Source of the DNA: Candidatus Latescibacterota bacterium
Lineage (GTDB): Bacteria; Latescibacterota; UBA2968; UBA8231
DNA length: 64,000 bases
Assembly (NCBI GenBank): GCA_964291625.2
Contig: OZ220089.1
Span: 2,688,001-2,752,000, forward strand
Reading direction: 5' to 3'
The translations under genes and the position numbers were made by a program. The notes beneath the pieces were generated by a model. It ran no database searches, had not been told where the DNA came from, and saw only the letters and a program-made list of their open reading frames with translations. Below are positions 13,568 through 55,918 of this stretch, piece by piece (within the stretch, counting starts at the first letter, position 1; every line of letters begins with the position of its first letter).

Positions 13568-13613
13568 TCGCAGAGGTACGCCCATTCGATTCCTCAGGGA
13601 GTCGCCCGTGACG

Positions 13614-17811: not shown

Positions 17812-17840
17812 ACGCCAGGACACCCCCCAAAGGCTGACCA

Positions 17841-23396: not shown

Positions 23397-23434
23397 CAGT
23401 CTGCCTTCGTTCGGCTCCCGCGGCGACAGCCGGC

Positions 23435-23747
23435 ACAGCAGGCCTTTGGGCACCCCATTCGAGTGGCGCCGGAGTCACCACCGACCCAGAATCCTTCCAG
23501 GCGCCACACGGTCACGAGAGAGAGTGTGTGTGCGGAGCGGTCCCCTGGGCGGTGACGGCGGCGCAGGCCGAGCCGAGCGGCGCATTGCGCCGGGCCGGGG
23601 TCAACAACCACTCTCATCCAGAACGCCCAGAGACCCGAGCGCAGCGAGGGGCTCGCCAACCCTCAGCACACCCTCCGGCGATAGCTCCACCAAACGCCGC
23701 CCGGCGTACGCGCCGCCGAGGCGCGGCCGGAGCCGCCGTCACCGCCC
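23435..23747 (+). repeat. Structured intergenic repeat element, copy 3 (full)
   Basis: Perfect 16-bp outer arms gggcggtgacggcggc/gccgccgtcaccgccc; conserved core. Confidence 0.92.
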
Positions 23748-32526: not shown

Positions 32527-32568
32527 CTTGCGGCCGCGACCACGCTATCTTCCACCAGTGGAGCAGCC

Positions 32569-33447
32569 ATGAACGATACCGACAACCCCTCCGCCCTGAC
32601 CCCGGAGCAGAAGTACGAGTTCGACCTGCGGGGGTACATCGTCCTGAAGGGCCACTACGACGAGGAGGCGGTGACGGAGTTCCACGCCGGCATCGACGAG
32701 CTGCAGGCGATCCCCGTCGACTACGAGACCTACACCCGGCTCGGGGTCGCCAGCTATTTCCTGGCCGCAGCCATGTCCGACCCGGAGCACCCGTTCTGGA
32801 AGGGGGAGCACCGCCCCGACCGGCGCCCCAACCCCGACTCCGGCGGCATCGGGCGGGTCGACCACGCCCTGTGCGGCACGGCGAAGTTCGACCGCATCGT
32901 GCGCGATCCGGTGATGAAGTCAGTCCACCGGGAGCTCGCCGGCGGCCCGGTCTACATCTCGGCGACCTACTACATCGAGAAGGTGGGACCCGCCGCGGGG
33001 GGCGGGCTCCACAACGGCGGCTTTCCGGTGGACCGCGACATCTACTATGCCTACGACCACACGCGGCAGCGGTTCGCCTGCAAGAGCACAAAGAGCGTGG
33101 TCATCCTCTCCGACATGACCCGCGTGGAGAACGGCCCCTTCGCCGCGGTCCCGGGGAGCCACAAGGCGAACTTCTCCTGTCCCTTCGACATGACGGACGC
33201 GGTCCGGAACCCGATGGCGGTGCCGGTGCTGGCCGCGCCCGGCGACGTCGTGATCTTCTCGGAGGGGATGACCCACAACGCCTATCCGGTCACCAACGAC
33301 TCGATCCGGCGCTCGGTGTTCTTCAACTACATGCCGGCCATCGGCCGCGACAACCTGCCCTTCCAGCGCATGTCCATCTACCCCGATCACGTCCTCGAAC
33401 GGCTGAGCGACGAGATCGATCTTCTCACCTCGGCGGGATACATCTGA
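32569..33447 (+). CDS. PhyH-family dioxygenase-like protein (HxG variant)
   Basis: KYEFDLRGYIV, LHNGG, VPGSHKAN, SEGMTH, RR. Confidence 0.85.
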   Translation: MNDTDNPSALTPEQKYEFDLRGYIVLKGHYDEEAVTEFHAGIDELQAIPVDYETYTRLGVASYFLAAAMSDPEHPFWKGEHRPDRRPNPDSGGIGRVDHALCGTAKFDRIVRDPVMKSVHRELAGGPVYISATYYIEKVGPAAGGGLHNGGFPVDRDIYYAYDHTRQRFACKSTKSVVILSDMTRVENGPFAAVPGSHKANFSCPFDMTDAVRNPMAVPVLAAPGDVVIFSEGMTHNAYPVTNDSIRRSVFFNYMPAIGRDNLPFQRMSIYPDHVLERLSDEIDLLTSAGYI

Positions 33448-36584: not shown

Positions 36585-37000
36585 CGCAACGGCCACCAAG
36601 CCAGCGCACCACCGGATCGAGTGGCGCCGGAGTCGCGCCGGCACAGAGCCCCCGGCCGGCGGCACGAGGCCCAGAAAGGTGGCTGCACGGTGATCCCACC
36701 GGCCGCGGCCACGCCTGCTGCGACGTCCCGCGAATGGAAGCCCTGCCAGCGGCGGCGACGGCGGCGCAGGCCGAGCCGAGCGGCGCATTACGCCGGGCGG
36801 ATCCCAAGCTTGCGCGCATCCAGAAGGCCCAGAGACCCGAGCGCAGCGAGGGGCTCGCCGGCCCCACGAATCACTCCGATAGGTCCTCGCCCTGCTTGGG
36901 CACGGGGCGCACTACGACATCTTCTCGGCTTGCGATAGATCCATCAACCAATCCGGGCGTACGCGCCGCCGAGGCGCGGCCGGAGCCGCCGGCGCCGCCC
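36585..37000 (+). repeat. Structured intergenic repeat element, copy 5 (50-bp loop insertion)
   Basis: Arms and core conserved; extra 36883-36932 flanked by CGATAG repeats. Confidence 0.9.
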
Positions 37001-37029
37001 CAAGGCAGAGGAGAACCAGAGGGAGAGCA

Positions 37030-37849
37030 CCGTGAACATCAGCTCCCGACCAGATCCAGGTGACGGAGGGTGGATTGGATCGCACCTGCCTCTACGAGCA
37101 CCGGGATCAACTCCGCGTGTCTCGTCCGCTCGGCCGCACCGAACAACAGCCGCGTATAGGGCTTCACCAGCGCGCCTTCGCCGATCAACCACCGCGCGAG
37201 CTGCTCGTGGCCTCCGGCCACGGCAGGCGGCTCACCGCCTGCAGGCTACTGATGACGCGGGCCTCCAGGGCCCGGGTGCAGGGGGGTCACACGCCAGACC
37301 GAGTCGTCTTCCTGTTCCCTGGTCAACAGGTCTGGCTCGGTCTCGAGCCAGTGTTGCACGCGGTCGGTGTCACCCAGGTAGCACGCGGAGTAGATATCCA
37401 GCAGCGGGCTGATGCAATCCTTCCTCAGCTCCCGACCAGCACCTGCCTCTACGAGCACCGGGATCAACTCCGCGTGTCTTCCAACATCTCGGCGAGGTGC
37501 GGTCGGCGATAGCGCCCCGCGATGCAGTAGGGCTTGAGGAGCACCGGGATCTCAGTAGGGCTTGAGGAGCACCGGGATCTGTCCGCCCCGGGACATTGGG
37601 ATCGGCTCCGGCCCGCAGCAGGAACCGCACGACGTCAACCCGATGGCCGCGCGTCGCTTCCCAAAGGAAGGTCCTGTTGTGCCCGCCGCTCTTGGCCAGC
37701 AGCAGCGACGGGTCCTGTCTCAGATGCCGCTTTACCGACTCCAGATCTCCGCGCCGCGCCGTCTGCAGAATCGCGGCGATACCGGTACGCCCACTGTGGC
37801 CCGCACGCGGCTTGACTTCATTGCCCCATCCGTGGTCGTCTCCGCTCAT
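37030..37849 (-). pseudogene. Ankyrin-repeat protein, rearranged/frameshifted
   Basis: TARRGDLESVK, EATRGHRVDVVRFLLRAGADPN, ACYLGD, GGHEQLARWLI.EGA in different frames; internal duplications. Confidence 0.8.
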
Positions 37850-40182
37850 GGAACCACGCCCGCATCCCCGAGCTCATACCTCCAGCCATTCACGACCAGC
37901 AGCGCCACCCCGTCCGAGCGATGGTTGCCGTACACCACCCCGTCCCGACCGCCCACCAGCACGAGGTCGTCCCCGATACGCGCCACTTCCGTCTCGCCCG
38001 ATCGCTCGGTCTGCACTTCAGCCCGGTGAAGCAGTTCGTGGCCGGGGCACAACACGACCCCCAGATTGCGGCGGCTCACCAGACCGGAGGGGGTGAACCG
38101 CAGGTGGTACTGCTGGTGCCACTGCGAGTCATCCTTGCGGATCCGCATCGGCGGGGGGTCCCATCCCTCGCCCAGGGAGAAGAAGGCGTTGTTGTGGTAC
38201 ATGAAGTGCCCTTCGAGGGAGCTGCCGTCACGCTCCAGCAGGAACGTCCTGGCCTCCTCGTCCACGGCGAAACGGTTCCAGGAGTGGATGTTCCACTGCA
38301 ACGCCGAGTCGAGACCCGGAACCGCGACGAACTCGTCGATCATCACGAAGCAGCTCCGCGCCTTCAGGAAGAGCACGTGCCGCCGGCACCGCCTAGCGCG
38401 GTCGCTGTAGCTTGCGTCGGCGTTGCCCGCAAAGTAGATGAGCCGTTCGTCCTCGAAGGGATTCTCGATCCTGCCCCTGGAGTCGTGAGACCGCATGATC
38501 TGCGAGGCGTCGGAGAGGGTGACGCAGTTGTGGGATTTGGTGTGCCACACCCAATGGGTGTGGTGATCCGAACCGTACCCGGCGTAGTAGCCGCTGGGCA
38601 TGGCCAGCACCTTGCCCCCGGCGTGCAGGATGAAGTCGTTGTTGTTGGCGTGGGAGTGGCTGATGGCGCCGAGAGGTGAAGAGCGGAAGATCATCGCCAC
38701 ATCCCGCGCGGGATCGTCCAGATGAGTCCGGACCGCGGCCCAGCCCGCGGCGGGAAAGAGACGGAACATGGGATGGCCCGATTCCTTCGGCCTGGGTGTC
38801 TCCAACGCGGGAGTCAGAAACAGCTGCGGCAGAACGCCCGGGGTTTGCCGGTTCGGCGGCGTCTGCATGTGCTCCGCCTCGGCGCGAAAAGCCTCGACGT
38901 AAGGCGTGAATTCACCGGTCCCGGTCTCTCGTCCGATCAGGTCCACCAGGTCCGCATTGGACCGCCACGAGCTCGCCCAGCGCTCGGTATGGTCGCCGAA
39001 CCCCATCCACTCCGCGTAGGGCGGCAGACAGTACTGACGCCACCGGGCGTGGTTCTTCCAGAACGGTCTCCTGTAGAGATCGACGCCCGCCCCCCGTTTC
39101 AGGGCGGTGGCGAACATGGTCATGATGGTCACGTAGGCCAGGCCGTAGGAGGGGCCTTCCGCCCACGCACCGTCGTCGCCGGCCCAGATCGGCCAGATAC
39201 CGCACAGCACCGGCCGCAGCCACTCGAGCCACGACTGCGCCTCGGGGATGTGCTCGTGGAAGACCAGCGCGATGTGGGCCAGGAAGACGATCTCGCGGCC
39301 GGCGTGCGAGTCGAAGCGCGTCAGTCCGTAGGATCCCCGGTTGTGCATGTGATCGAACGTCATCCGCCCACGCTGCCGGAACTGGGCGACGACGGCGTCG
39401 CGCTCCTCGTCCGTGAAACGGTCCCACACCCAGTCGCAGGCGTTCGAGCCGTTCCAGATCACCGACATGTGAGCTTCGTCGTTGTGGGCCAGGTGGCTCG
39501 ACCCCTCCGGATCCCAGCGGGAGATGGAGGCCATCCGCCGGCAGGCGGCGCGGGCGAAACGGTCCTCCCCGCCCACCAGCCAGGCCAACGCCAGGGTCTC
39601 GGCGCCCTTGACGAAGCGCCGGGAGTTCCACATCAGCGGACTCCAGGCCTCGAAGAATGCCTGATAGCTCTCCCGGCGGTCGGGGAGATAGGGCGGCTCC
39701 TCGATCTCGTGAGGTTCCGCCAACACGGCCTCGGCGCTTCTCCGCAGGCCTTCCCACGCTGACGCACGCTCGCCAAGAGCCGCCGCACGCAGCGCCGGTA
39801 CCTCCTCGGGGCGGACGTAGATCCGCGGGTGTTGCGCCGGGAAGCGTTTCAGCCACTCCGCAGCCGACGGCACCTCCACAACCACCGCCTCCGCTGCGAT
39901 CTCAAAGGCGAAGACCTCCGACATCGCGCTATCCCCCGCGCACCAGCGCCAGAAGTACCTACCCGGCGCGAAGGCGGTCTCGGGCAGAAACAGCGGGTCC
40001 TGCAGATTCCCCTTCTCCAGGCAGATGCTCTCGAAGCCGGGATCCCGGGCCACCTGCAGCCGATAGCCCGACGCGGACTCCACGGGAAGCCAGGCGAAGA
40101 CAGGCGGATTCGTCCCCGGCCTGGCGTCTGCCCTGGGCTGCCGCGGATCTCTGTGCGGGTGCGGATGGCGGTGTTGCTTCAT
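37846..40182 (-). CDS. DUF4962 + heparinase II/III-family polysaccharide lyase (oligo-alginate-lyase-like)
   Basis: NPPVFAW, HPRIY, DG.WAEG.SY, SHSHANNN, TKSHN. Confidence 0.85.
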   Translation of the reverse strand: MKQHRHPHPHRDPRQPRADARPGTNPPVFAWLPVESASGYRLQVARDPGFESICLEKGNLQDPLFLPETAFAPGRYFWRWCAGDSAMSEVFAFEIAAEAVVVEVPSAAEWLKRFPAQHPRIYVRPEEVPALRAAALGERASAWEGLRRSAEAVLAEPHEIEEPPYLPDRRESYQAFFEAWSPLMWNSRRFVKGAETLALAWLVGGEDRFARAACRRMASISRWDPEGSSHLAHNDEAHMSVIWNGSNACDWVWDRFTDEERDAVVAQFRQRGRMTFDHMHNRGSYGLTRFDSHAGREIVFLAHIALVFHEHIPEAQSWLEWLRPVLCGIWPIWAGDDGAWAEGPSYGLAYVTIMTMFATALKRGAGVDLYRRPFWKNHARWRQYCLPPYAEWMGFGDHTERWASSWRSNADLVDLIGRETGTGEFTPYVEAFRAEAEHMQTPPNRQTPGVLPQLFLTPALETPRPKESGHPMFRLFPAAGWAAVRTHLDDPARDVAMIFRSSPLGAISHSHANNNDFILHAGGKVLAMPSGYYAGYGSDHHTHWVWHTKSHNCVTLSDASQIMRSHDSRGRIENPFEDERLIYFAGNADASYSDRARRCRRHVLFLKARSCFVMIDEFVAVPGLDSALQWNIHSWNRFAVDEEARTFLLERDGSSLEGHFMYHNNAFFSLGEGWDPPPMRIRKDDSQWHQQYHLRFTPSGLVSRRNLGVVLCPGHELLHRAEVQTERSGETEVARIGDDLVLVGGRDGVVYGNHRSDGVALLVVNGWRYELGDAGVVP

Positions 40183-40212
40183 GGCGGTACCCTACGGCAA
40201 TCTCGGTGATCC

Positions 40213-40457
40213 CCGCCAACCCCAGCCCCCCCGGCCGGCGCCCCACCGGATCGAGTGGCGCCGGAGGCACCCCCGGCCCGGAGTCACCACCGAGCGCCAC
40301 CCCGCCCACAGAAAGGTGTGTGGAGTGAGGTCCCACCCGGGGCGGTGACGGCGGCGCAGGCCGGGCCGAGCGGCGCACCTTACGCCGGGCCGGGGTCAAC
40401 AACCACCCGCATCCAGCAGGCCCAGAGGCCCGAGCGCAGCGAGGGGCTCGCCAACCC
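40213..40457 (+). repeat. Structured intergenic repeat element, copy 6 (3'-truncated, no right arm)
   Basis: Similarity stops after ggggctcgccaaccc. Confidence 0.92.
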
Positions 40458-40639
40458 ACGGACCAGGTTCAGGGGAGATGACCACCGCCAGCCAGCACGA
40501 GGGGTGGCCTGGACCTCAGCGGGAGCCAACCTTCCGGAGTGTCCCTTTGGGAGGAGGGTTGCGCAAGGGTCCCTGGCGACTCTACTCTGGAACCAGGGGG
40601 TGGGCCCGCCTCCCAATCCGCTTTGATCGGAGTTCTATC

Positions 40640-40894
40640 CTGAATCGGCCTAGGGAGCTTCGACAGCAGATTCTCGGTGGTCGCTCGGATGCGAACATCC
40701 GTTTCGACGACTTGCGCTCGCTACTCCGGAGGCTGGGGTTCACCGAGCGGGTGCGAGGAAGTCATCACATATTCCGGAAGGAAGGAATCGCTGAAAGGCT
40801 GAACCTGCAACGTGATGGCAGCCACGCGAAACCCTATCAGGTGCGACAGGTCCGCCGAGTGATACTGAAATACAAACTGGAGGATCCGGACTGA
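40640..40894 (+). CDS. hicA: HicA-family toxin (start codon unclear)
   Basis: NIRFDDL..LL..LGF..R.RGSHHIF, AKPYQV.QV. Confidence 0.85.
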   Translation: MNRPRELRQQILGGRSDANIRFDDLRSLLRRLGFTERVRGSHHIFRKEGIAERLNLQRDGSHAKPYQVRQVRRVILKYKLEDPD

Positions 40895-41106
40895 TGTACA
40901 GATACGAGATCATCCTTTACTGGAGCGATGCCGACAGCGTTTTCGTGGCTGAAGTGCCGGAGCTATCTGGATGCATGGCTCACGGTGACACACAAGAGGC
41001 CGCTCTCAGGCAGGTCAAGGAAGCCATGGGTCTTTGGATCGATACCGCAAGGGAGTTCGGCGACCCGATTCCGGAACCCAAGGGCGAGCGTCTGATGCTG
41101 GCATAG
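40894..41106 (+). CDS. hicB: HicB-family antitoxin
   Basis: FVAEVPELSGCMAHGDT.E.AL....EA..LWI. Confidence 0.92.
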   Translation: MYRYEIILYWSDADSVFVAEVPELSGCMAHGDTQEAALRQVKEAMGLWIDTAREFGDPIPEPKGERLMLA

Positions 41107-41109
41107 CCA

Positions 41110-41437
41110 GCCAACCGCAGCCCACCAGGCAAGCGCCCCACCGGATCGGTGGCGCCGGAGTTCACCCCGGGCCCAGAACCCCAGCAGGCGCCACCCCGCC
41201 CACAGAAAGGTGTGTGGGGTCAGGTCCCACCCGGGGCGGTGACGGCGGCGCAGGCCGGGCCGAGCGGCGCCCTTTACGCCGGGCCGGGGTCAACAACCCC
41301 CCACATCCAGCAGGCCCAGAGACCCGAGCGAAGCGAGGGGCTCGCCAACCCCTCGAACCACCTCCCGTCGATAGCCCCACCAACCAGGCCCGGCGTACGC
41401 GCCGCCGAGACACGGCCGGAGCCGCCGGCACCGCCCC
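41110..41437 (+). repeat. Structured intergenic repeat element, copy 7 (full)
   Basis: Near-identical to copy 6 over ~240 bp; core GCGAAGC. Confidence 0.93.
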
Positions 41438-41489
41438 TTGCCAGAACCCCCTATCTTGGACCCAATCCAATCCAACCGGAGAACCAGCC

Positions 41490-42371
41490 ATGACCGAACA
41501 CGCCAACACCTCGCGCTCGATCACCGCAGACACGACCGAGATGTCCCCCGACGAGAAGTACCTCTTCGACCTGACCGGCTTCCTGATCGTGCGCGACGTG
41601 CTGAGCGACGAGCACCTGAAGCTGGCCAACGAGGCGATCGACTCGATGGAGCTCAACCCGAGCCCCGAGTACTTCGGCGATTCGGCCGCCCTGAGGGGTG
41701 AGAACCGCTCGACCCGCCTCGGCAACAGCGAGAACCTGATGGAGCTTCCCCATCCCCACTGCGAGCCCTTCCGGGAGATGCTGGCCCATCCGAAGACCAT
41801 CCCCCATCTCAACACCATCCTCGGGGAAGGCTGGCGCCTGGACCACGGCCCCGGCCTGATCGCCATGGACAAGGGATGCTCCGGGGGCATGCTGCACGGC
41901 AACTTCGACAACGCCCCCTACTTCTACCGCGAGGGGAAGATCTTCACGGGCCTCTGCGTCATCGAGTACCTCCTCGCCGACGAAGGCCCCGGCGACGGCG
42001 GCATCAGCGTTGTGGCCGGCAGCCACAAGGCGAATCTCGCCTGCCCGGCGAAGATGCTCCGATGGGAGCAGTACCAGGAGTACGTGACCGAGATCAACGC
42101 CAGGGCCGGCGACGCCGTCATCTTCAGCGAGGCCTGCACCCACGGCACCCTCCCGTGGAACGCCGACCACCAGCGCCGCGCCATCCTCTACAAGTACAAC
42201 ACCGGCCACATGGCCTGGGGCGGAGGCGGACTGCGAGGGGCTCGCCCCTCCTACTGGGACGAGCTCACCCCTGCGCAGCAGGCGGCTCTGCTCCTGCCCT
42301 CCCACCACTCCCGCCGGCCCAAGCAGAGCAACGGGTACGCCGGGCTCGCCGAGGTGGCCGACTCGGCCTGA
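41490..42371 (+). CDS. PhyH-family dioxygenase-like protein (HxN variant)
   Basis: KYLFDLTGFLIV, LHGN, AGSHKAN, SEACTHG, RR. Confidence 0.85.
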   Translation: MTEHANTSRSITADTTEMSPDEKYLFDLTGFLIVRDVLSDEHLKLANEAIDSMELNPSPEYFGDSAALRGENRSTRLGNSENLMELPHPHCEPFREMLAHPKTIPHLNTILGEGWRLDHGPGLIAMDKGCSGGMLHGNFDNAPYFYREGKIFTGLCVIEYLLADEGPGDGGISVVAGSHKANLACPAKMLRWEQYQEYVTEINARAGDAVIFSEACTHGTLPWNADHQRRAILYKYNTGHMAWGGGGLRGARPSYWDELTPAQQAALLLPSHHSRRPKQSNGYAGLAEVADSA

Positions 42372-42378
42372 GCACGGC

Positions 42379-43491
42379 ATGCACGACGCCATCGTCATCG
42401 GGGGAGGGGTGCTCGGCGCCGCCACCGCCTGGCACCTCGTCCTCGCCCGGGCGCGGGTGCTGCTGCTCGACCGCGGCGACGAGGGACGGGCCACCGCCGC
42501 CGGGGCCGGCATCGTCTCCCCGGCGACCTACCGCGGCGACTCCGACGTCTGGTACCGCTTCAGCCGGGCCTCATACCGTCACCTCTCGACGCTGGTCCCC
42601 CAACTCGAGGCCGAAGGCATCGGCACCGGGTTCGCCCGCTGCGGCCTGCTGCTGGTGGCGGTCTCCGACGACGAGTTCGGACCCTTCGAGGCCGCCTCTC
42701 AGCGGATCCTCTCGCGCCCGGATGAAGGCTCCCCGGTTCGCCCCGTCGACATTGCCGAAGCCCGGGAGATGTTCCCGCCCCTCGCCGAATCCGCCCGGGC
42801 CCTGCACAACCCCGACGCCGCCCGCATCGACGGCCGCCTCCTGGCCCGGGCCCTGCTCGAAGCCGGCGAACGCCGCGGACTCGAGCGCCGGACCGCCTCG
42901 GCCGACAGCCTCATCCTCGACGGGAGCCGCGTCACCGGCGTCCTCAGCGGCGGCGACCGCATATCCGCGGGAGCCGTGGTCATCGCCGGCGGCGCCTGGT
43001 CCCGGCGCTTCTCGGACCAGCTCGGCCTCGACATCCCGGTGGCCCCCCAGCGCGGCCAGATCATCCACCTCGACCTCGGAGGCACCGACACCTCCACCTG
43101 GCCGATCGTCAGCGCCTTCCGCGACCACTACATGGTCCCCTGGCCGGACAGCCGCGTAGCCGCCGGCGCCACCCGCGAGACCGGCTCCGGCTTCGAGCCC
43201 AAGGCGACCGCCGCCGGGACCGTCGAGGTGCTCTCCGAGGCCCTGCGCGTCGCCCCCGGCCTGGCCTGCGCCTCCATCCGCGAGACCCGCGTCGGCCTGC
43301 GCCCCCTGTCGGCCGACGGCCTGCCGGTCATGGGCGCGGTCCCGGGGTGGCAGGGCCTCTACCTGAACACGGGGCACGGGGCCAGCGGTCTGCAACTGGG
43401 GCCCTTCAGCGGGCGGGCTGTCGCCGATGCTGCCCTGGGCTGCGGGCCGGGGTTCGACCTCTCGTCTTTCTCGGTCGAGCGGTTCCTGTGA
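42379..43491 (+). CDS. FAD-dependent oxidoreductase (D-amino-acid oxidase family)
   Basis: GGGVLG, AGGAWS, RGQ, GLRP..DGLP..G, TGHG..G. Confidence 0.92.
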   Translation: MHDAIVIGGGVLGAATAWHLVLARARVLLLDRGDEGRATAAGAGIVSPATYRGDSDVWYRFSRASYRHLSTLVPQLEAEGIGTGFARCGLLLVAVSDDEFGPFEAASQRILSRPDEGSPVRPVDIAEAREMFPPLAESARALHNPDAARIDGRLLARALLEAGERRGLERRTASADSLILDGSRVTGVLSGGDRISAGAVVIAGGAWSRRFSDQLGLDIPVAPQRGQIIHLDLGGTDTSTWPIVSAFRDHYMVPWPDSRVAAGATRETGSGFEPKATAAGTVEVLSEALRVAPGLACASIRETRVGLRPLSADGLPVMGAVPGWQGLYLNTGHGASGLQLGPFSGRAVADAALGCGPGFDLSSFSVERFL

Positions 43492-43522
43492 CGATGGTCG
43501 ACGGCCCAACCTGCGCCGCGCC

Positions 43523-43576
43523 GTCAGGTTCACCAACTGGCGGATCGTCGACGTGGACCTGATCGACTATCACTAG
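43523..43576 (+). pseudogene. HigB toxin C-terminal remnant
   Basis: Reads [17 protein letters not shown], matching the NWRI...DVD..DYH end of HigB killer proteins, directly before higA. Confidence 0.6.
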
Positions 43577-43593
43577 CGAGAGGCTGGAAACTC

Positions 43594-43830
43594 ATGGCGA
43601 TGAAGAACCCACCACATCCGGGCCGCAGCATCAAGGAGAGCTGTCTGGCCCCCCTCGGCCTGAGCGTCACCGAAGCGGCGAAGGTGTTGGGCATAGCTCG
43701 TCACACGCTCTCCCGCGTCCTGAACGGCCATGCGGCCATCTCGCCGGAGATGGCCATTCGACTGGAGAAGGCGGGCTGGTCCAACGCGGAGTTCTGGCTG
43801 CGGCGACAGATCGCCTACGATCTGGTATAG
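43594..43830 (+). CDS. higA: HigA-family antitoxin (probable premature stop; reading continues to 43887)
   Basis: MKNPPHPG....[32 protein letters not shown]; after TAG reads ARRTEGKIQVRPYEPEIA*. Confidence 0.88.
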
Positions 43831-43898
43831 GCCCGCCGGACCGAAGGGAAGATCCAGGTCAGGCCCTACGAGCCGGAGATAGCCTGAGCAACCAAGCC

Positions 43899-44195
43899 AT
43901 GGATCACCCCTCGCCCCGGCCCTCCACCCCATGGCGGGTCCACAGCGTCGAAGCCCTGCCCGGACTTCGGTTGCAGGTCCGCTTCACGGACGGCACATCG
44001 GGTGAGGTGGACATGGGGAGGTTCCTCCAGAGCCCCGCCGTCCGAGGCACCCCCTTCGAGCCGCTCCTCGATGAGAGCCTGTTCAGCCAGGTTCGCGCAG
44101 ACCTCGGAGCCGTCACTTGGCCCACGGGAGCCGATCTCGCTCCCGACGCCATGTACGACGCCGTCCGCGCCTCAGGAGAGTGGATCCTCGAGTAG
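43899..44195 (+). CDS. DUF2442-domain protein
   Basis: L.VRFTDG..G.VD, F.QV...GAVTWP.GADLAPD.MY. Confidence 0.85.
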   Translation: MDHPSPRPSTPWRVHSVEALPGLRLQVRFTDGTSGEVDMGRFLQSPAVRGTPFEPLLDESLFSQVRADLGAVTWPTGADLAPDAMYDAVRASGEWILE

Positions 44196-44206
44196 TCGGG
44201 GACACC

Positions 44207-44535
44207 CCCCAACCGCAGCCCACCAGGCCGGCGCTCCACCAGAGCAAGTGGCGCCGGACCCACCCCAGGCCCAGAACAACCCCCCAGGCGCCACCCCACC
44301 CCTAAAGGAGTGTGTGGTGGTGGTCCCCCCCAGGGCGGTGACGGCGGCGCAGGCCAAGCCGAGCGGCGCATTACGGCGGGCCGGGGTCAACAACCACCCG
44401 CATCCAGGAGGCCCAGAGACCCGAGCGAAGCGAGGGGCTCGCCAGCCCCACGAATCCACCCCAGGCGATAGCCCCACCAAACAGGCCCGCCGTACGCGCT
44501 GCCGAGGCGCTGGCCGGAGCCGCCGTCACCGCCCC
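44207..44535 (+). repeat. Structured intergenic repeat element, copy 8 (full)
   Basis: Arms with compensatory tacggcgggcc/ggcccgccgta; core GCGAAGC. Confidence 0.93.
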
Positions 44536-44589
44536 GCGCCAGAACCACCCCCCATCACCACAGCTGTCGTCTTCATGGTCGATCTCCCT

Positions 44590-45780
44590 TCAGTCGAAGA
44601 AACCCGCGTCCTCTTCGGAGAGGTGCCGCTTCGCCTCCTCGACGACGAACTCCACCCCCAGTCCCGGGGAATCCCACACCTCGATGTGGCCGTCGGCGAC
44701 GATCGGGTCGGGCAGCCCGGTGACCATGTCGAGCCAGGACTCCTCGTACCGGCCCGGCATCTCGAAGGCGATGTAGTTCTGCGGCAGGGTGGCGGCGAGA
44801 TGGACATGGGCCGCCAGTCCGAAGAGCCCGTCGATCACTCCGTGGGGGGCCATGAGGATGCCGTGGAGGTCGGCGTACTCGGCGATCCACTTCGTCTCCG
44901 CGATCCCGCCGACGTCGGCCGGGTCGGGGCCGACGACGTTCACCGCCTGCTTCTCGAAGAGTTCCTTGAAGTGCTGCCGCAGGTAGATCTGCTCCCCCGT
45001 GTGGATCGGCGTCGAGGTGCTGCGCGTCACCTCCCGGTAGAGGTCGGCGAGCACGTACGGGACGTAGTCGCCGGTGATCATGTCCTCGAGCCACATCAGG
45101 TTCAACGGCTCCACGGCTTGGGCCAGCCGTATCGAGTCGGGGACCGTCATTCCGGGACCGCAGTCGAGGGCGAGGCCGACCTCGTCTCCCAGCTCCGCCT
45201 TCATCGCCTCGGCGCAGGCGATCACGTGCTTCAGGCCCCGCTCCGTCAGCGGGCCCCGGTTGGCGTGCCAGCGGCCGCCCGAGCTCTCCCCGTAGAAGAA
45301 GCCGGGGACGTGCGCGGGCATGCCGCTGTGGAAGGCGACGCCCATCTTGCACAAGGTGAACCCCTGCGGCAGCTCCCGGACGGCGCGGGCGGCAGCGGCG
45401 TATTCCTCGGGCCGGGAGTCCGTCACCGGAACCGGAGAGCCGGTCAGGTAGACCCGCACCCGGTCGCGGATCTTGCCGCCGAGCAGCTTGTACACCGGAA
45501 CCCCCGCGGCCTGGCCGGCGATGTCCCAGAGCGCCATCTCGATGGCGCTGACCGCACTGCCCCAGGGCTTGAAGCCCCCGAGCCGCCGGATGCCGAGCAT
45601 GACCCGCTCGACGTCGGTCGGGTCCATGCCGAGAACGAGGTCGCGGTAGAACAGGACGTGGGGCTTGAGGTAGGGCTTGGAGGACTCCACCTGCCCCGTG
45701 CCGACGATCCCCTCGTCCGTGAGGATGCGGACGATCGGATGGCGGCCGATGACGGCGCACTTCAGATCGATGATCTTCAT
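44590..45780 (-). CDS. Mandelate racemase/MLE family dehydratase
   Basis: SAIEMALWD, LDCG, LED, TGEQ, APH, PGLG. Confidence 0.92.
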   Translation of the reverse strand: MKIIDLKCAVIGRHPIVRILTDEGIVGTGQVESSKPYLKPHVLFYRDLVLGMDPTDVERVMLGIRRLGGFKPWGSAVSAIEMALWDIAGQAAGVPVYKLLGGKIRDRVRVYLTGSPVPVTDSRPEEYAAAARAVRELPQGFTLCKMGVAFHSGMPAHVPGFFYGESSGGRWHANRGPLTERGLKHVIACAEAMKAELGDEVGLALDCGPGMTVPDSIRLAQAVEPLNLMWLEDMITGDYVPYVLADLYREVTRSTSTPIHTGEQIYLRQHFKELFEKQAVNVVGPDPADVGGIAETKWIAEYADLHGILMAPHGVIDGLFGLAAHVHLAATLPQNYIAFEMPGRYEESWLDMVTGLPDPIVADGHIEVWDSPGLGVEFVVEEAKRHLSEEDAGFFD

Positions 45781-46700
45781 GACAGCCTCTGGGCGACCTC
45801 CACCGGGAGGCCGTCTCCCGCGTCGAGGGTGATCGAGCGGATGGGCACCCCAAGGGCGAGATCGCGCTCCCCAGGCGGCGTGCCGTGGGCGATCTCCCCG
45901 GCCAGGGCGTCCACGTCGTCCGTCCAGAGCCCGAAGGAGCCCACGACCCCGCGGCCGAGACCATCGGTGGTCCCGCCGTCCTTCCGCCCCCGCAATTCGA
46001 TGTCGCACATGCCGGCGGCGAAGACGTACCCCTCGTGCGTGCCGCTGTCGGAGTGGTCGATGACGGACAGCCCCAGCTTCTCCCCGTACAGCGCCTTCCC
46101 CCGGCCGATGTCCGGGCACTCCATGGCCATGTGATCGAAACCCTTGAGCAGGCTCCCGGCGGAGAGGCTGGCGATCCGCTGCTTCTCCCGCCGCCTCTCC
46201 TGGTTGTGCAGCCTCGGGTCCACGATCTCGGAGATCTGGATCGGGTAACCGTTCGGATCGACGAACTCCAGCAGGCTCCTCTGCATGTAGGCGTGGTCCA
46301 TCGGCTGCACGATGGGTCCGTCCTTCGTTGCCCGGAACCTGTTGGACGCGAAGAAGCCCTCGAAGTGCGAGAAGGCATGGTGGTTGCCCTCGACGTAGAA
46401 GGACCAGTGTCCGACCGAGCCGTAAGCCTGCCCCGTCCTCTCGCCCTCGGGCGACAGCAGCACGGGGGCGGCCTCGTCCTCCCGCAGAACCAGGAAGGAG
46501 TCGCCCACCTGGAGGACGGCCTCGCGGTCGCCGCTCTCGGCGGCGGCGCCGTCCACCCACTCGCCCTTCTCGTTCTGCACGGCGGTGGTGTTCTGCAGCT
46601 CGGTGAGGCCGAGGCGCCGGCCATAGACCTCCCGGCACTCGTCCCAGAGGCGTGTCCGCATCTCGATGTAGGCGATTCCCGTGATCATGTTCGACAACAC
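45777..46700 (-). CDS. Two-domain VOC/glyoxalase-family protein
   Basis: Y...LGL, GHWSF, F.DPNG..I, FDHMA, Y.EKLGL. Confidence 0.75.
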   Translation of the reverse strand: MLSNMITGIAYIEMRTRLWDECREVYGRRLGLTELQNTTAVQNEKGEWVDGAAAESGDREAVLQVGDSFLVLREDEAAPVLLSPEGERTGQAYGSVGHWSFYVEGNHHAFSHFEGFFASNRFRATKDGPIVQPMDHAYMQRSLLEFVDPNGYPIQISEIVDPRLHNQERRREKQRIASLSAGSLLKGFDHMAMECPDIGRGKALYGEKLGLSVIDHSDSGTHEGYVFAAGMCDIELRGRKDGGTTDGLGRGVVGSFGLWTDDVDALAGEIAHGTPPGERDLALGVPIRSITLDAGDGLPVEVAQRLS

Positions 46701-46782
46701 CTTCCCAGGCCCGTGCCGGAGACGCAGGGGTGAGGGAGGGGGACCGCGTGTGCTACGTCACTGCCGACGGCAGGTTGCATCT

Positions 46783-47091
46783 TCACGGCTCACCTCCAAG
46801 CGCACGCACAACCGCCTCGGGATCGCGGTCGATGACGGTCAGCAGCACCCGGGCGGCCCGGTCAGGCACACGCCGCCCCTGTTCCCACTCCTGCAGGGCC
46901 CGCGCATCCAGGCCGAATCGGTCCGCGAACTTCCGGCGACTCAGCTTCATGCGCTTGCGCAGCGCGACGATATGTTCGGCGGCGGGATCGTCCACGATCC
47001 GGCAGGGCAGTTCCACTTCGCCGCGCACATGGGCAAGCACCTCGCCCAAGGCGGTCTCGACTTCCTGCCCCACCTGAGTCCGTTCCGTCAT
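46783..47091 (-). CDS. XRE HTH antitoxin (HigA2-like)
   Basis: I.ALR...LS...FA..FG.....LQEWEQGRR.PD.AA..LL.VI...P. Confidence 0.88.
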   Translation of the reverse strand: MTERTQVGQEVETALGEVLAHVRGEVELPCRIVDDPAAEHIVALRKRMKLSRRKFADRFGLDARALQEWEQGRRVPDRAARVLLTVIDRDPEAVVRALGGEP

Positions 47092-47632: not shown

Positions 47633-48081
47633 TGCCAGTACCCCCCACCTACCCCTATCTTCCACTCACCCAAACCCATCCATGCCAATCCTTCTGATCC
47701 CCCACCCGGCCAAGCAGATGGCCCCCTCCGATTGCGCAGCGCCATCACCACCCAGGGCCTCCGGGCTGGCCCGCGGGCCAGCCAAACGGCCGCCCATCGG
47801 AGAGTCGTTGGACACATGCCTCGGGGAGAATCCCCATGCCGGTCGGACCCCCTAACGAGGAGACAACCGCAGAACGCTCCTTGATTGGCTCTAGGGTAGC
47901 CCTGCAGGTTTCAACTCCAAACGCACCGCTGATGGGCCCCAGTTTGGAACACAGCAATGAAGCTGGGAGGCCTCAACTTGCATTCAAGTGCCCGTGAATG
48001 CGGTGGTGGCTCCCGCTCCCGAGCATCCTCTCTATGGGGCACGGAATGGTGATAAGGCGCCCCGGGAAAGGCCGACCTCTA

Positions 48082-49860
48082 ATGCGACTATCACGAGTAC
48101 AGATACGGAACTTTCGGAATTTTAACACCCTGGACGTCGAGCTATCAGAGAATGCGGTTGTAGTCGGCGAGAACAAGATCGGCAAGACCAACCTGCTGCA
48201 CGCGATGCGATTGGTGCTTGATCCGACCTTGCCCGACTCAGCACGGCATCTGAAGGACGAAGATTTCTGGGATGGTCTGCCTCGACCCCTTGCGCGCGAA
48301 CACAGGATAACCGTTTCGATTGACCTCACGGACTTCGAAGGCGACGAGGACCAAGTTGCTTTGCTGTGCGAACACCTGGTCGTAGCTGAGCCAATGACGG
48401 CGAGGCTGACATATGTGTTCCAGCCGCTTGAGACATTGGATGGCGAACCGTCCAAGGAGTCTGACTACGAGTTCGTGCTGTACGGGGGCGATCGTCCCCA
48501 GAATCGCGTTGGTTATGAGATTCGTCGACGGCTGCCTTTCGATCTGCTACCCGCGCTTCGCGATGCGGAGGGAGATCTGCGAAATTGGCGACGTTCTCCA
48601 CTCCGCCCACTCCTGGACCTAGTTGCTGGGCGTATCGATCGGGAAGCACTGGTGGCACTAGCGAGGGACATTTCTGCTGCCACAGCAGCTGCCGCTGGCA
48701 ACGAGGAAGTGAAGAGGCTCGTCGATGAGATAAACCGGCGCGTGAGGACCCTAGTGGGTCCGTTTCAGACGGTCGATACGTCGCTTGGATTCTCTCCGAG
48801 CGATCCAGAGCGCCTCTTGCGAGCGATGCGCCTGTTCGTTGACGCGGGGAGGCGCGAAATCGGCACGGCCAGCTTGGGATCCACGAACGTGCTGTACCTT
48901 ACCCTCAAGGCTCTGCAACTAGATGAATCAGTTGCGGAGAGGGAGAGGCATCACACGTTCCTCGCAATTGAGGAGCCAGAGGCGCATCTCCACCCCCACT
49001 TGCAGAGACTCGCTTACCGGGGGCTTCTCCGCCCTCCAGAAGGTCATGGTCACACATCACCCCTAACGGCGGTGCTTACCACGCACTCACCTCACATCGT
49101 GAGTGTTGCCCCTCTCAATTCGCTTGTCCTATTGCGAAAGACGCAAGCCGGGAACAGCAGTGAGGGGGTGTCTACGGCCAAATTGGAGCTTGCCTCGGAA
49201 GTCGTGGCCGATCTTGAGCGATACTTGGACGTTACACGCGGAGAGATGCTCTTCGCCAAGGGCGTACTGCTCGTTGAGGGCGAGGCAGAGCGATTCTTGC
49301 TTCCGGCTCTAGGGAAGTCCAATGGAATCGATTTCGACGAGCTCGGGATCTCGGTTTGCTGCGTAGGGGGTACGAACTTCCGGCCGTACATCGAGTTTCT
49401 GGGTGACCGTGGGCTGGACCTGCCAGTCGCCGTGCTCACAGATGGAGATCCGGCGAAGGACGGTCGGAGACGCGGGGAGGAACGGGTGTTGAGTTTGCTG
49501 CGTGATGCCGTCGCCCCGTCGGACCTTGATGGGAAGACGGACGGGCAGCAGCTTGAAATGGCTAGGGACCGGGGGTTTTTCGTCGGTGATTACACCTGCG
49601 AGGTAGATCTGTTCGGGAGCGGGGCCCACAGGCAAATTGGGAAGACACTAGTTGAGTTGGCTCCAGGGGAGGCCGTTCGGAGTAGAGCGGAAGCCTGGAC
49701 AGCCAGCCCGGAGGACTTGGATCCAGTGCGCTTTCTGGCGGACATCTCATCGATTGGAAAGGGTCGCTTCGCTCAGCGGCTATCGGCGCGCGTCGAAGGT
49801 GGCAGCTGGCCAGCCTACATGAGGGATGGTATCGAGTATGTCCGCACCCGCTGTCGCTAG
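48082..49860 (+). CDS. gajA: OLD-family ATP-dependent nuclease (ABC ATPase + TOPRIM), Gabija GajA-like
   Basis: NFRNF, GENKIGKT, IEEPEAHLHP, TTHSP, LLVEG..E, TDGD; visibly lower GC. Confidence 0.85.
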   Translation: MRLSRVQIRNFRNFNTLDVELSENAVVVGENKIGKTNLLHAMRLVLDPTLPDSARHLKDEDFWDGLPRPLAREHRITVSIDLTDFEGDEDQVALLCEHLVVAEPMTARLTYVFQPLETLDGEPSKESDYEFVLYGGDRPQNRVGYEIRRRLPFDLLPALRDAEGDLRNWRRSPLRPLLDLVAGRIDREALVALARDISAATAAAAGNEEVKRLVDEINRRVRTLVGPFQTVDTSLGFSPSDPERLLRAMRLFVDAGRREIGTASLGSTNVLYLTLKALQLDESVAERERHHTFLAIEEPEAHLHPHLQRLAYRGLLRPPEGHGHTSPLTAVLTTHSPHIVSVAPLNSLVLLRKTQAGNSSEGVSTAKLELASEVVADLERYLDVTRGEMLFAKGVLLVEGEAERFLLPALGKSNGIDFDELGISVCCVGGTNFRPYIEFLGDRGLDLPVAVLTDGDPAKDGRRRGEERVLSLLRDAVAPSDLDGKTDGQQLEMARDRGFFVGDYTCEVDLFGSGAHRQIGKTLVELAPGEAVRSRAEAWTASPEDLDPVRFLADISSIGKGRFAQRLSARVEGGSWPAYMRDGIEYVRTRCR

Positions 49861-51649
49861 ACCATCGCCGGCTTATTGGCAGGCCGTGGAAGAGCTTCAG
49901 GAGAATCCTGGTCAGTGGCAAGCGTACAACTCGGATGGACACTGCGTTGTGCTCGCAGGGCCAGGAAGCGGCAAGACCAGGACACTCACCGTGAAGATTG
50001 CGAAGCTGCTGATTGAGACAATTCACGAACCTCGTGGGTTAGCGTGCATCACCTACAATTCGGAGTGTGCGCGTGAGCTGAAGGCTAGGCTTGAGCGACT
50101 GGGAGTGTATGAGTCCAGAAGTGTCTTCATTGGGACAGTTCACTCATTCTGCTTGAGGCGAGTGGTGATTCCCTTTTCAGCCTTGGCGGGCATCGAGCTG
50201 CCGGAGGACTTCCGTATTGCACTAGAGAGCGAACAAGAGGCCGCGTTTGAGGAGGTCAGGGCTCGGGTCAGCCCCGATGGGCGGTCGCGGGGGCTGCGTA
50301 CGATGGCGGAGAAGTACCGACGTACTCACCTTGATCGGGACGGTGCGGAGTGGCAGGAGGACAAGGAGTTGGCGGCCTTGGTGGCCGGCTACGAGCAGTT
50401 GTTGAGAGCAGGAGGGATGATCGACTTTGACGACATGGTGCTTATCGGGCTGAAGCTGATCGAGAGTCGGAAGTGGGTACGCCGGGCACTTCACGCACAG
50501 TTCCCCGTGGTCGTTGTTGATGAGTACCAGGACTTGGGCTTGGCGCTGCATCGGATTGTGAGCAATCTCTGTTTCCGAGGAGGTTCGCGTCTCTTTGCGG
50601 TTGGGGATCCTGACCAGTCGATCTATGGCTTCGCAGGAGCACGGCCAGAGCTATTTCGCGGCCTAGCGGACTCTCCCGAGGTGGAGGCCGTACAGCTGCC
50701 ATTCAACTACCGAAGTGGGGAGACGATTGTTCAAGCCGCGGAGATCGCGCTTGGGGAGACCCGTGGCTATGAGGCGCGTGGAGCTAACGCGGGATCGGTA
50801 GACTTTCACGAGCGACCGAGGGGTCTTGACGATCAAGCGGAGTATATCTGTGGTGAGATAATCCCGTCTGCAATGGAGAGGGTTGAGGGCCTACAGCTTG
50901 CCGATGTGGCAGTGCTGTATGTCGACAGGAGCGACGGAGACGTGATCGCTGGGAGGGCAAAGCAACACAAGTACGCTACAGTGAGGGTTGACCGGGGTGC
51001 ACCCTACCGCAAGACTCCGCTGATCAGATGGTTAGAGGACTGTTCTGCATGGTGCGCGGGGGGTTGGGCTACTGGGTCCCCGCGGTTAAGCTCTCTCCTT
51101 GGTACTTGCGCCTCCATCCTTGGGATGCATGCTGGGGATCGTGAGTGGCATGAGCACAAGGTGAGGCTCGTGGGAGTGCTGCTTTCCCAACGGCAGCCAG
51201 AGCTGTTACTGCGAGAGTGGCTGACAACGCTCAAGAGGGAAGTCTTAGACCTGTTCTTGGAGAGGGACATGACGTTGAGGGACGAGCGGGAGGCGTTAGG
51301 TGTGGTCACGGAGGCCTGCAAGATCGGCGGAGTGCTTGGAGAGTGGAGTGTCGCCGCTTTCGGTGGGCAGGGCGGTTCCCCTGACCACCTAAACCTCATC
51401 ACCCTGTGGAGTGCAAAGGGGCATGAGTATAGAGTAGTCGTCATGATGGGTATGGAGGAGGGACGGGTTCCTGGGTGGAACGCTAGCGAGTTGGAGAAGC
51501 GGGAGCAGCGGAGGCTGTTCTACGTGGGGCTCACTAGAGCGAAGGAGGAGGTCCACATGACCTACTCTGGCTGGAGGGAGAATCGGTACGGGCGACGGTT
51601 CTTTGATGGACCCTCGAGGTTTCTTGTGGAGGTTCGCGAACGTCTCTAG
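49838..51649 (+). CDS. gajB: UvrD/PcrA-family helicase, Gabija GajB-like
   Basis: AGPGSGKT, VDEYQD, VGDPDQSIY.F.GA, NYRS, SAKG.E, RLFYVGLTRA; overlaps the OLD gene. Confidence 0.85.
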   Translation: MSAPAVARPSPAYWQAVEELQENPGQWQAYNSDGHCVVLAGPGSGKTRTLTVKIAKLLIETIHEPRGLACITYNSECARELKARLERLGVYESRSVFIGTVHSFCLRRVVIPFSALAGIELPEDFRIALESEQEAAFEEVRARVSPDGRSRGLRTMAEKYRRTHLDRDGAEWQEDKELAALVAGYEQLLRAGGMIDFDDMVLIGLKLIESRKWVRRALHAQFPVVVVDEYQDLGLALHRIVSNLCFRGGSRLFAVGDPDQSIYGFAGARPELFRGLADSPEVEAVQLPFNYRSGETIVQAAEIALGETRGYEARGANAGSVDFHERPRGLDDQAEYICGEIIPSAMERVEGLQLADVAVLYVDRSDGDVIAGRAKQHKYATVRVDRGAPYRKTPLIRWLEDCSAWCAGGWATGSPRLSSLLGTCASILGMHAGDREWHEHKVRLVGVLLSQRQPELLLREWLTTLKREVLDLFLERDMTLRDEREALGVVTEACKIGGVLGEWSVAAFGGQGGSPDHLNLITLWSAKGHEYRVVVMMGMEEGRVPGWNASELEKREQRRLFYVGLTRAKEEVHMTYSGWRENRYGRRFFDGPSRFLVEVRERL

Positions 51650-52807: not shown

Positions 52808-52993
52808 ATGGAATACCGCGTCTTGATCGAGCAGGATGAAGATGGAGTCTTCGTGGCAGCAGCCCCCTCACTCCCCGGTTGCATCAGCCAGGGTGCCACA
52901 CGTCAGGAGGCGCTGACCGGCATCCGCGAGGCGATGACCCTGTACCTGGAGAGCCTTGCCGCGTATGGTGATCCCATACCGCCTCCGGTCTGA
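52808..52993 (+). CDS. hicB: HicB-family antitoxin (orphan)
   Basis: MEYRVLIEQDEDGVFVA..PSLPGCISQG.T..EAL..IREA..LYLE. Confidence 0.9.
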   Translation: MEYRVLIEQDEDGVFVAAAPSLPGCISQGATRQEALTGIREAMTLYLESLAAYGDPIPPPV

Positions 52994-53359: not shown

Positions 53360-53433
53360 TCCCAGACCACCCCCACCACCCCTATCTTCAATCCAATCCA
53401 ACCCAATCCACTCCCCCAAACCGGACCCCCAGA

Positions 53434-55308: not shown

Positions 55309-55360
55309 GGCTCAAGCCTCGAGCCTCACCCGAAGTCCCGGCAGCCGGCCCCCGGTTCGA

Positions 55361-55918
55361 TCACCCCCCGCGGCCCTCCTCCCACTCCCTCCGCAGGATG
55401 GAGAGGCCGTGCTGACTGTGCCACGCCCCGTCGAAGAACACGGTCTCCCGGAAGAAGGCCTCCCGCTGCATCCCCAGGCGCTCGGCCATGAGGAGGGAGC
55501 GCTCGTTCGCGCCGTCGCAGTGGGCGGTGATCCGGTGCAGGTCGAGGGTGGTGAAGGCGAACTCCAGCATCGCCCGGCTGGCCTCGGTGGCCAGCCCCTG
55601 GCCCCGGTACCCGGCGTGGAGGAACCACCCCATGTCCCCCTGGCGGTGGACCCGGCTGTTCACCTTGATGCAGCTGGTGCCGATCACCCGGCCCGTCTCC
55701 TTGTGCTCGATCGCCAGGTGCAGGTAGGCCCCCTCCGCGTCCAGCGGCAGGTCGCGCGAGGTGGCGATGAAGCTCCTCGCCACTTCCTCCGTGTAGGGCT
55801 CGCGGCTGAGGTAGAGGGTGTGGCCGGGCTGGGCCTCGCAGTCGAGGTAGTCGGCCAGGTCGTCGTCCCGCATCCTGCGCAGGACCAGGCGCTCCGTCTC
55901 GATGCGGATCTCGGACAC
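55361..55918 (-). CDS. GNAT N-acetyltransferase (RimJ/RimL-like)
   Basis: IETERLVLR, YRGQGLATEA, N.RS...ERLGM..E. Confidence 0.88.
   Translation of the reverse strand: MSEIRIETERLVLRRMRDDDLADYLDCEAQPGHTLYLSREPYTEEVARSFIATSRDLPLDAEGAYLHLAIEHKETGRVIGTSCIKVNSRVHRQGDMGWFLHAGYRGQGLATEASRAMLEFAFTTLDLHRITAHCDGANERSLLMAERLGMQREAFFRETVFFDGAWHSQHGLSILRREWEEGRGG

Follow-up and report, generated by a model that had tools for sequence, protein, structure and literature searches.

An old hicAB gene pair between a truncated and a full copy of a structured repeat in a Latescibacterota bacterium

The stretch of DNA analysed here (the window) comprises 64,000 nucleotides (nt) of contig OZ220089.1 of a Candidatus Latescibacterota bacterium (assembly GCA_964291625.2; G000:C1:2688001–2752000 in the coordinates of this study). 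The feature under study is a hicAB toxin–antitoxin (TA) gene pair lying between two copies, c6 and c7, of a GC-rich repeat of about 345 nt. Comparison with related genomes indicates that this arrangement is old, vertically inherited and partly decayed, and that it is not a capture caught in the act. On the left, the locus is bounded by a minus-strand open reading frame (ORF) for a heparinase II/III-like lyase (37846–40182; Pfam matches to DUF4962 at 3.9e-38 and to Hepar_II_III_C at 2.8e-19), the start codon of which is 26 nt from the start of c6. Copy c6 (40208–40479, plus strand) consists of the 5′ part of the repeat only and covers positions 4–274 of a profile model of about 349 positions, which was built from 18 full copies; homology is secure to 40457. 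Stem 1, a small hairpin, the 5′ arm of the long stem (about 40339–40394) and the inner hairpin are contained in it. The following features, all on the plus strand, are a leader of 160 nt (40480–40639), which is not derived from the element and is conserved in the congeners G002 and G006 and partly in G007; hicA (40640–40894, 84 codons), which has CTG where the start methionine of the family aligns; and hicB (40894–41106, 70 amino acids, of the short UPF0150/HicB-like type), the ATG of which overlaps the hicA stop codon by one base. The hicB stop codon occupies 41104–41106, and the full copy c7 (41106–41450, plus strand, delimited by profile and BLAST searches) aligns with model position 7 at 41106. 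Its long stem is formed by a 5′ arm at about 41233–41288 and a 3′ arm at about 41384–41436, with the inner hairpin at about 41320–41345. A gene for a PhyH-family dioxygenase (41491–42371, plus strand) starts 40 nt after c7.

An earlier reading made from the letters of the window alone (the sequence-only reading) had described a direct duplication of the 5′ part of the element around foreign, low-GC cargo, and this architecture was borne out. HicA and HicB-like domains were found in the segment of about 650 bp between the copies, the GC content is 0.54–0.59 across 40600–41099 versus 0.68–0.77 on either side, and c7 does begin right at the end of hicB. The direct repeats 40255–40457 and 41149–41351 share 89% identity over 203 nt, and their starts lie 894 nt apart. 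When c7 (41100–41460) was searched against the whole genome with BLAST, c6 was matched over 40212–40457 (c7 positions 8–252, 89.9% identity over 247 nt), and the remaining 10 copies showed 73–85% identity to c7. The same reading had let c6 stop 7 nt past the inner hairpin; the truncation and the missing 3′ arm stood, but the break is less sharp than that and falls within 40457–40479. The 3′ 100 positions of the element gave no profile match in 40458–40625 with all filters off; since the 3′ profile is unmatched in these 168 nt after c6, this copy is truly without the 3′ arm of the long stem. Residual homology to the element 3′ end in the downstream leader, suspected from a MAFFT alignment, was ruled out by the profile search. 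Scans of 40100–41560 for sigma-70 promoters and for terminators returned none of either.

A search for public runs gave 24, all of them stored as contigs, and the contigs of four runs (X1–X4) were aligned to 37010–46900. A short-read contig of run X1, which is possibly the source sample, equals 40387–41251 with zero differences and spans the end of c6, hicAB and the start of c7; the order c6–hicAB–c7 is therefore not an artefact of the assembly of this record alone. Parts of 37010–46900 are also covered by contigs of the RNA run X3, contigs as such carrying no transcription, end or strand information.

The HicA domain (PF07927) was detected with an E-value of 1.4e-06 (28.8 bits versus a cut-off of 27), and 3474 HicA homologues were found at E ≤ 1e-5, mostly 83–84 amino acids long; those listed were 70–91% identical. 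The gene directly downstream carries HicB-like domains in 40894–41103 (PF15919 at 1.1e-09 and PF21748 at 1.3e-08). In the hicA frame, no ATG, GTG or TTG occurs between 40478 and about 40709, and the CTG at 40640 aligns with the methionine of six of seven aligned homologues; this CTG is kept in G002 and G006. The hicA ORF is intact in G000, and the ratios of nonsynonymous to synonymous differences (pN/pS, 0.12–0.34 for hicA and 0.11–0.14 for hicB) indicate that both genes are under purifying selection, that is, kept by selection, except in G007 with its broken hicA. Either hicA would start at the CTG or further upstream, or the toxin would be made at a very low level. By its domains, the cargo is an ordinary HicAB member apart from the start codon. 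Within the class, hicA is patchily distributed (27 of 132 genomes, 12 of 31 genera), and the best matches outside the genus (77–82% identity) are in another family. DNA homology to hicAB loci outside the genus is confined to 40656–41107, that is, to both ORFs, and the leader is not shared. Horizontal acquisition of hicAB agrees with this ORF-only similarity to loci of another family and with the low GC content.

The repeat itself was located with BLAST searches of c7 against both contigs of the 5.9-Mb genome. Twelve loci were found in C1 2675855–2741374, all on the plus strand, in the window at 13611–53374 and upstream of it at G000:C1:2675855–2678193 (L030 7854–10198). The minus-strand matches correspond to the internal inverted repeat, c7 positions 134–189 being the reverse complement of 285–337. 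Between the copies, which are spaced 0.9–8.9 kb apart, lie several genes (up to six or more), encoded on both strands. Among 41 related genomes searched, arrays with strong matches were present in five congeners only (G002, G004, G005, G006 and G007), and single weak matches occurred in four further genomes; no match was found in the congeners G001 and G009 (92 and 96% completeness). In the contiguous assemblies G006 and G007, the array is one-stranded as well and lies within 60–77 kb. A scan for an exact 31-nt core in one genome per species (185,579 species) returned 22 loci, all of them in four of these congeners by contig names, and a scan of Joint Genome Institute metagenome contigs for the core motif returned one contig, the same as that of G005. 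With Rfam 15, no matches were obtained at the gathering score in the whole window or at E ≤ 1 in 40150–41520. A limited literature search yielded no description of such a repeat; a search by term within PMC12993501 showed mention only of protein repeats and, generally, TA systems.

RNAalifold, applied to the 18 full copies, predicted that GTGGCGCC and GGCGCCAC pair in a stem near the 5′ end, that the two arms form a further stem of about 50 bp, and that there is an inner hairpin, which is invariant. In the 38 copies with the long-stem module, 1636 of 1663 cells are paired in 44 predicted pairs, six of which show changes on both sides. G·U occurs in 29 cells at 13 pairs versus A·C in 5 cells at 5 pairs, these being cells of related sequences and not independent events. 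Because G·U exceeds A·C, a single-stranded fold of the plus strand is favoured, and the modelled element most likely acts single-stranded on that strand. The array lies to the left of a GC-skew minimum at about 3.06 Mb, which is too weak to tell the strand exposed in replication. Placement relative to genes was determined with a crude ORF filter for 32 copies with an intact 3′ end (G000, G006 and G007): 17 precede the start of a plus-strand gene by 7–106 nt, 9 precede the stop of a minus-strand gene by 5–24 nt, and 6 were left unassigned. Since the starts and stops of neighbouring genes are so close, the elements fill the intergenic gaps almost wholly. The predicted fold and this placement suggest that the element is probably a functional structured intergenic module, putatively an RNA such as an intergenic terminator, insulator or leader.

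Some further observations were made on the repeat. A short form, consisting of the long-stem module alone (model ~127–346), recurs at orthologous sites, as in c2 (17603–17820), and three tandem units of 62–63 nt (17328–17541) stand in place of the 5′ module of c2. Several copies lying ahead of plus-strand genes have a short CTATCTT motif 15–30 nt past their 3′ end (41445–41490, 53374–53434 and 32531–32590; also in G006 and G007); the motif might belong to a Bacteroidota-type promoter. A sigma-54-like GGCAC-N6-TTGC near the 3′ end of the element was set aside, as its spacing appears to be wrong.

The junction was compared across the genus set used for hicAB (10 genomes including G000), in four of which, G000 included, hicAB DNA is present. 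Synteny of G000 with G006 and G007 is extensive, and the identity to G000 over a 10-kb flank is 94–97% for G002, 91–94% for G006 and G004, 89% for G007 and 72–80% for G005. All three congeners that hold the junction (G002, G006 and G007) have hicAB, then the c7 orthologue, then the PhyH gene. The order in G006 is lyase, c6 relic, leader, hicA, hicB, full c7 orthologue and PhyH, with 89.7% identity over hicAB–PhyH, and about 50 nt after the c6 break are common to G000 and G006. G002 has the same gene order with a c6 relic shorter still than that of G006, the relics of these two genomes retaining about 35–130 nt. G007 shows an ankyrin gene, part of the leader, an internally deleted hicA, hicB in intact form, what is left of c7 after a large internal deletion, and PhyH. 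Because the junction is shared, the arrangement and the c6 break are older than the split of G000, G002 and G006; because G007 has hicAB, a c7 remnant and PhyH, the order hicAB–c7–PhyH is older than the split from G007. A single element without hicAB, which the sequence-only reading had expected at the orthologous junction, was seen in none of these three congeners. The relics mark the left partial copy c6 as dispensable and decaying in the relatives. In G009, a more distant congener without the element, the PhyH orthologue (79% identical) has a different upstream gene and neither hicAB nor the element beside it; this would fit a gain of both, and its neighbours differ, so it is not the same junction.

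The likeness of c6 and c7 was analysed in a maximum-likelihood tree (33 copies, six genomes, 245 columns). As had been proposed, the two are closest relatives among all these copies (sisters at support 97/98, path length 0.11), and they share unusual variants, with 14 non-consensus positions in common; they differ at 21 positions (about 91% identical). Eight of the 14 shared positions also occur in the c7 orthologues and are thus markers of the c7 lineage; the other six are absent from the c7 counterparts in G002 and G006, each occurring in 0–9 of the other 31 copies. At model position 160, a marker position that can be checked in the c6 relics of G002 and G006, these show the consensus of the family where c7 has its marker. 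In the tree, the c6/c7 pair of G000 excludes the positional orthologues of c7 from G002 and G006. Seven other G000 copies (cA, cB, c1, c3, c5, c8 and c10) cluster with the copies at corresponding positions of G002, G004 or G006, with strong support for four of them (cB, c3, c5 and c10).

From these patterns it appears likely, and we hold this with good confidence, that c6 has been kept about 91% like c7 by gene conversion in the G000 lineage, the repeats being 894 nt apart, and that recency of the duplication is not the cause. In the simplest reading, conversion would have run from c7 to c6. The near-identity of the two copies had been taken as a sign of recency; gene conversion explains it better, the relics being without c7-type variants and c7 standing apart from its own orthologues. 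Where gene conversion is possible, nearly identical neighbouring repeats are no sign of a recent event.

A recent acquisition in G000, which would make the locus a true snapshot, would agree with the 91% identity and sisterhood of c6 and c7 and with the cargo GC content that is still low. We regard it as scarcely credible. The arrangement is common to G002, G006 and G007 and the junction after c6 is common to G006, facts on which the earlier idea of a snapshot of cargo acquisition fails; the 21 differences and the path length of 0.11 match the distances between orthologous copies of G000 and G002 (0.09–0.175 in the tree); and acquisition by interspecies transfer would need near-identical flanks, whereas the flanks are 85–94% identical.

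Partial duplicates of the element also occur without cargo. A tandem in G006 runs from model position 8 to 297 and at once from 31 to 347, its two parts being sisters at 91/88; in G005, 125–347 is followed by 18–340, and in cB of G000 and G002, 18–99 is followed by 45–341. A GNAT gene in G006 (L027 about 4590–5860, minus strand; G6rc 54149–55398) is flanked by twin copies (sisters at 90/77), and its ribosome-binding leader is duplicated too; at this slot, G000 (22824–23747) and G002 have the downstream copy only, and G007 has one partial copy and no GNAT gene. In c5 of G000 (36591–37009), two foreign patches of 28–53 nt (36719–36746 and 36882–36934) match, at 89% and 96–97%, an ankyrin gene just downstream of the c5 orthologues in G004, G006 and G007. 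Past either patch, the element continues from the position at which it was interrupted (model ~118 and ~272), the second time near the c6 break. We infer that these patches were left by short template switches next to the long hairpin. In G000, most of the ankyrin gene itself has been lost. A site-specific target at the CGATAG flanking a c5 patch was considered and dropped, as the patch starts with the same letters in the donor gene, which is microhomology.

Because of the cargo-free tandems, the GNAT twins and the c5 patches, slippage or template switching is taken to be the usual source of partial duplicates. By analogy with these copies, the duplicate at the hicAB locus may have arisen from a replication error at the long hairpin, by slippage or template switching, which would have given a 3′-truncated copy ahead of a full one, with hicAB taken in at the joint in the same event or later. 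This origin is put forward as a plausible but tentative proposal. The explanation as a whole, namely a horizontally acquired hicAB upstream of c7, an old 5′ duplicate c6, conversion between the two and an origin of the duplicate by replication error, is considered probable on balance.

Campbell-type integration, the first option of the sequence-only reading but moved to the distant past, would account for the same locus differently: a circle with hicAB and about 270 nt of the element would have recombined into a resident element, leaving the partial copy on the left and a full hybrid on the right. The geometry is exactly that expected (truncated left copy, cargo, full right copy, direct orientation), a one-strand array of direct repeats is what repeated integrations of this kind would build, and rearrangements between species often end at copies of the element; by manual reading, about half (~8 of 16) of the structural differences between G000 and G006 do so. 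A circle with a partial element, however, needs an earlier locus of the same structure, so that the origin is only pushed back, and the cargo-free tandems of a truncated and a full copy are left unexplained by a circle. No 894-nt skip or go-back joint, as expected of a circle or a deletion, was among the 15 of 35 joints listed for the four runs, the search covering contigs only, which drop rare forms. The joints found among c6, c7 and c8, for example 40264 to 44329 and 44436 back to 41350, show extra letters or sides that are short, and they involve repeats shared with relatives in the same metagenomes, so that no conclusion is drawn from them. On this evidence, integration of a circle is judged unlikely.

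Alternatively, c6 and c7 might be two ordinary members of the array with hicAB between them, c6 having later lost its 3′ 75–90 nt and the likeness being due to conversion only, with no duplication tied to the cargo. Deletions within copies are common (the c7 remnant of G007, the c6 relics of G002 and G006, c9, and the short forms from model ~127), gene conversion is indicated independently, and the G006 GNAT gene lies between two full-length copies, one of them with a small internal deletion. What such a history leaves unexplained is the placement of hicAB between copies separated by only about 650 nt, the second of which (c7) begins at the stop codon of hicB; the c6 break lies near model ~272, as does a templated patch of c5. 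We consider this alternative quite improbable.

Several points weigh against the explanation preferred here, that is, an old duplicate made by replication error and kept alike by conversion. A donor or intermediate was seen for no mechanism, and the origin by template switching is drawn by analogy with other copies. The species order was taken from the percent identity of one 10-kb stretch and not from a tree, and the element is held by six genomes only, all close kin. G007 is without the lyase and c6, so c6 may postdate hicAB. The first ~125 nt of c6 are missing in both G002, the closest genome by identity, and G006; as conversion cannot add sequence without outer homology, the ancestor must have had this part, and two parallel deletions, an inherited polymorphism or interspecies recombination would be needed. 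Both deletion ends of the c6 relics lie in a short C-rich repeat inside the element, which makes a recurrent deletion plausible. The sisterhood of c6 and c7 could also reflect a second duplication in G000, against which only the shared downstream junction argues. As for the strand on which the element acts, both strands fold better than shuffled sequences (z −4.5 and −3.8), so that folding cannot separate them, and the excess of G·U over A·C counts cells and not events.

The 65-kb array is a polysaccharide-catabolism island with PhyH, enolase-superfamily, sulfatase, lyase and dehydratase genes, among which TA and defence genes are scattered. A slot upstream of c10 holds different defence systems in three species: a Gabija pair in G000 (47998–51649; GajA 2.7e-216, GajB 3.1e-219), an AriA/AriB-like pair in G006 (L025 15423–17650), and an NsnB/AriA-like ATPase with a PIN protein in G007 (L024 9540–11418). 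Their GC content at third codon positions is below that of the neighbouring genes in all three. Near the same copy, a second short hicB-like gene (52811–52993) ends 17–25 nt before c10, with no intact hicA readable upstream; G006 has the same second hicB, preceded by a partial copy of the element. Two genes (43594–44195), one for a HigA-family antitoxin (TIGR02607, 1e-26) and one for a DUF2442 protein, end directly at the start of c8, and the neighbouring DAO block, probably with HigA, sits elsewhere in G006 and G004, upstream of the lyase. Two defence-type pairs were found upstream of the window near cA and cB (L030 5416–6925 and 11290–13997): AbiEi/AbiEii, absent there in G006, and an AAA_15/AAA_21 ATPase whose partner belongs to no known family. 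Just past the c8 orthologue of G007 (L024 3959–5227), a Mutator-family transposase gene separates two pieces that seem to belong to a single glycoside hydrolase gene.

The single locus is of modest interest: an ordinary, long-resident hicAB beside a decaying repeat duplicate. The array is more novel than the hicAB locus, being an undescribed structured repeat of narrow taxonomic range that forms one-strand arrays in sponge-associated bacteria. The repeat sits at many rearrangement break points, has templated patches and borders slots of species-specific defence systems. It might be the core of an integrase-free gene-capture array, in which replication would stall at the 50-bp stem, switch template, paste in nearby or foreign DNA such as TA pairs, defence systems or small enzymes, and duplicate the element in the same orientation; such an array would grow and reshuffle in the manner of an integron, by replication errors and homologous exchange and with no dedicated recombinase. 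This generalisation is doubtful and offered as a decidedly speculative one. Should the repeat really promote the capture or shuffling of genes without a recombinase, a new source of genome plasticity would be at hand; should it rather be a large RNA acting in cis, it would represent a new family of RNAs linked to catabolic operons.

In comparison with known systems, the cargo resembles type II HicAB TA pairs in its HicA_toxin and HicB-like/UPF0150 domains, in having the toxin gene first with a one-base overlap, and in being a small, low-GC, patchily distributed pair. It differs from them in the CTG at the start methionine in three species despite purifying selection, and in its HicB of 70 amino acids, in which Pfam found no DNA-binding domain. 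With repetitive extragenic palindromes, bacterial interspersed mosaic elements (REP/BIME) and enterobacterial repetitive intergenic consensus (ERIC) sequences, the repeat has in common that it is a GC-rich imperfect palindrome, is intergenic only and lies tight against gene ends. Those elements are spread genome-wide on both strands, whereas the repeat occurs here in 12 copies on one strand in 65 kb. REP-like dispersal, or dispersal in the manner of miniature inverted-repeat transposable elements, and recent mobility were not seen, the copies being one-stranded and clustered and following positional orthology. Orphan toxin/immunity modules are reported to lie downstream of cdiA and rhs genes (Poole et al. 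are said to have described this in 2011). There, too, cargo enters beside a conserved sequence and leaves a truncated duplicate, and arrays grow in one direction; the repeat of those systems is the coding sequence of the toxin gene and the process is homologous recombination, whereas the repeat here is a non-coding structured element.

With integrons, and with attC-site clusters that have no integron integrase (CALIN), the array shares a repeated, folded site on one strand, TA and defence cargo and, as in CALIN, no integrase nearby; the product of excision in the known system would be an ORF together with a single site. The locus could thus be read as an integron-like site-specific system, the element being a large attC-like folded site and hicAB with c7 a cassette, and it would agree with this that the element is a long, imperfect palindrome in which mismatches are conserved and wobble pairs are biased to one strand. 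The site is, however, about 345 nt long here, and attC sites are far shorter. Its break points vary (model 274, 297, 229 and 127), the copies occupy shared positions in different species and group accordingly, and site-specific insertion would leave two whole sites and not a truncated one. The best match to the integron integrase (TIGR02249) anywhere in the genome scored 69.6 bits versus a cut-off of 265. Four tyrosine recombinase matches (PF00589) lie on C1 at 0.08, 0.21 and 4.12 Mb and on C2, the nearest of them more than 1.3 Mb from the array at 2.68–2.74 Mb. As far as the accessible parts of two sources go, chromosomal integrons typically carry cassettes with TA and defence genes (PMC13108822; 10.1101/2024.07.02.601686), and the cargo here matches them. 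IntegronFinder, in the part of its description at hand, clusters attC sites within 4 kb (PMC4889954); the intervals here are multi-gene, on both strands and up to 8.9 kb long, and are not single-ORF cassettes. By the definitions in that part, the array is integron/CALIN-like in layout and cargo and fails the tested integrase and cassette-structure features. Because there is no integrase, the recombinases are distant, the breaks are variable and position is conserved, a site-specific system is considered highly improbable.

Capture of a whole foreign two-gene module by template switching is, to our knowledge, established nowhere, nor is it here. A likeness for the smaller events is found in quasi-palindrome template-switch mutations and microhomology-mediated replication restarts, with which the array shares short patches templated nearby beside a long hairpin, resumption at the point of departure and partial tandem duplications.

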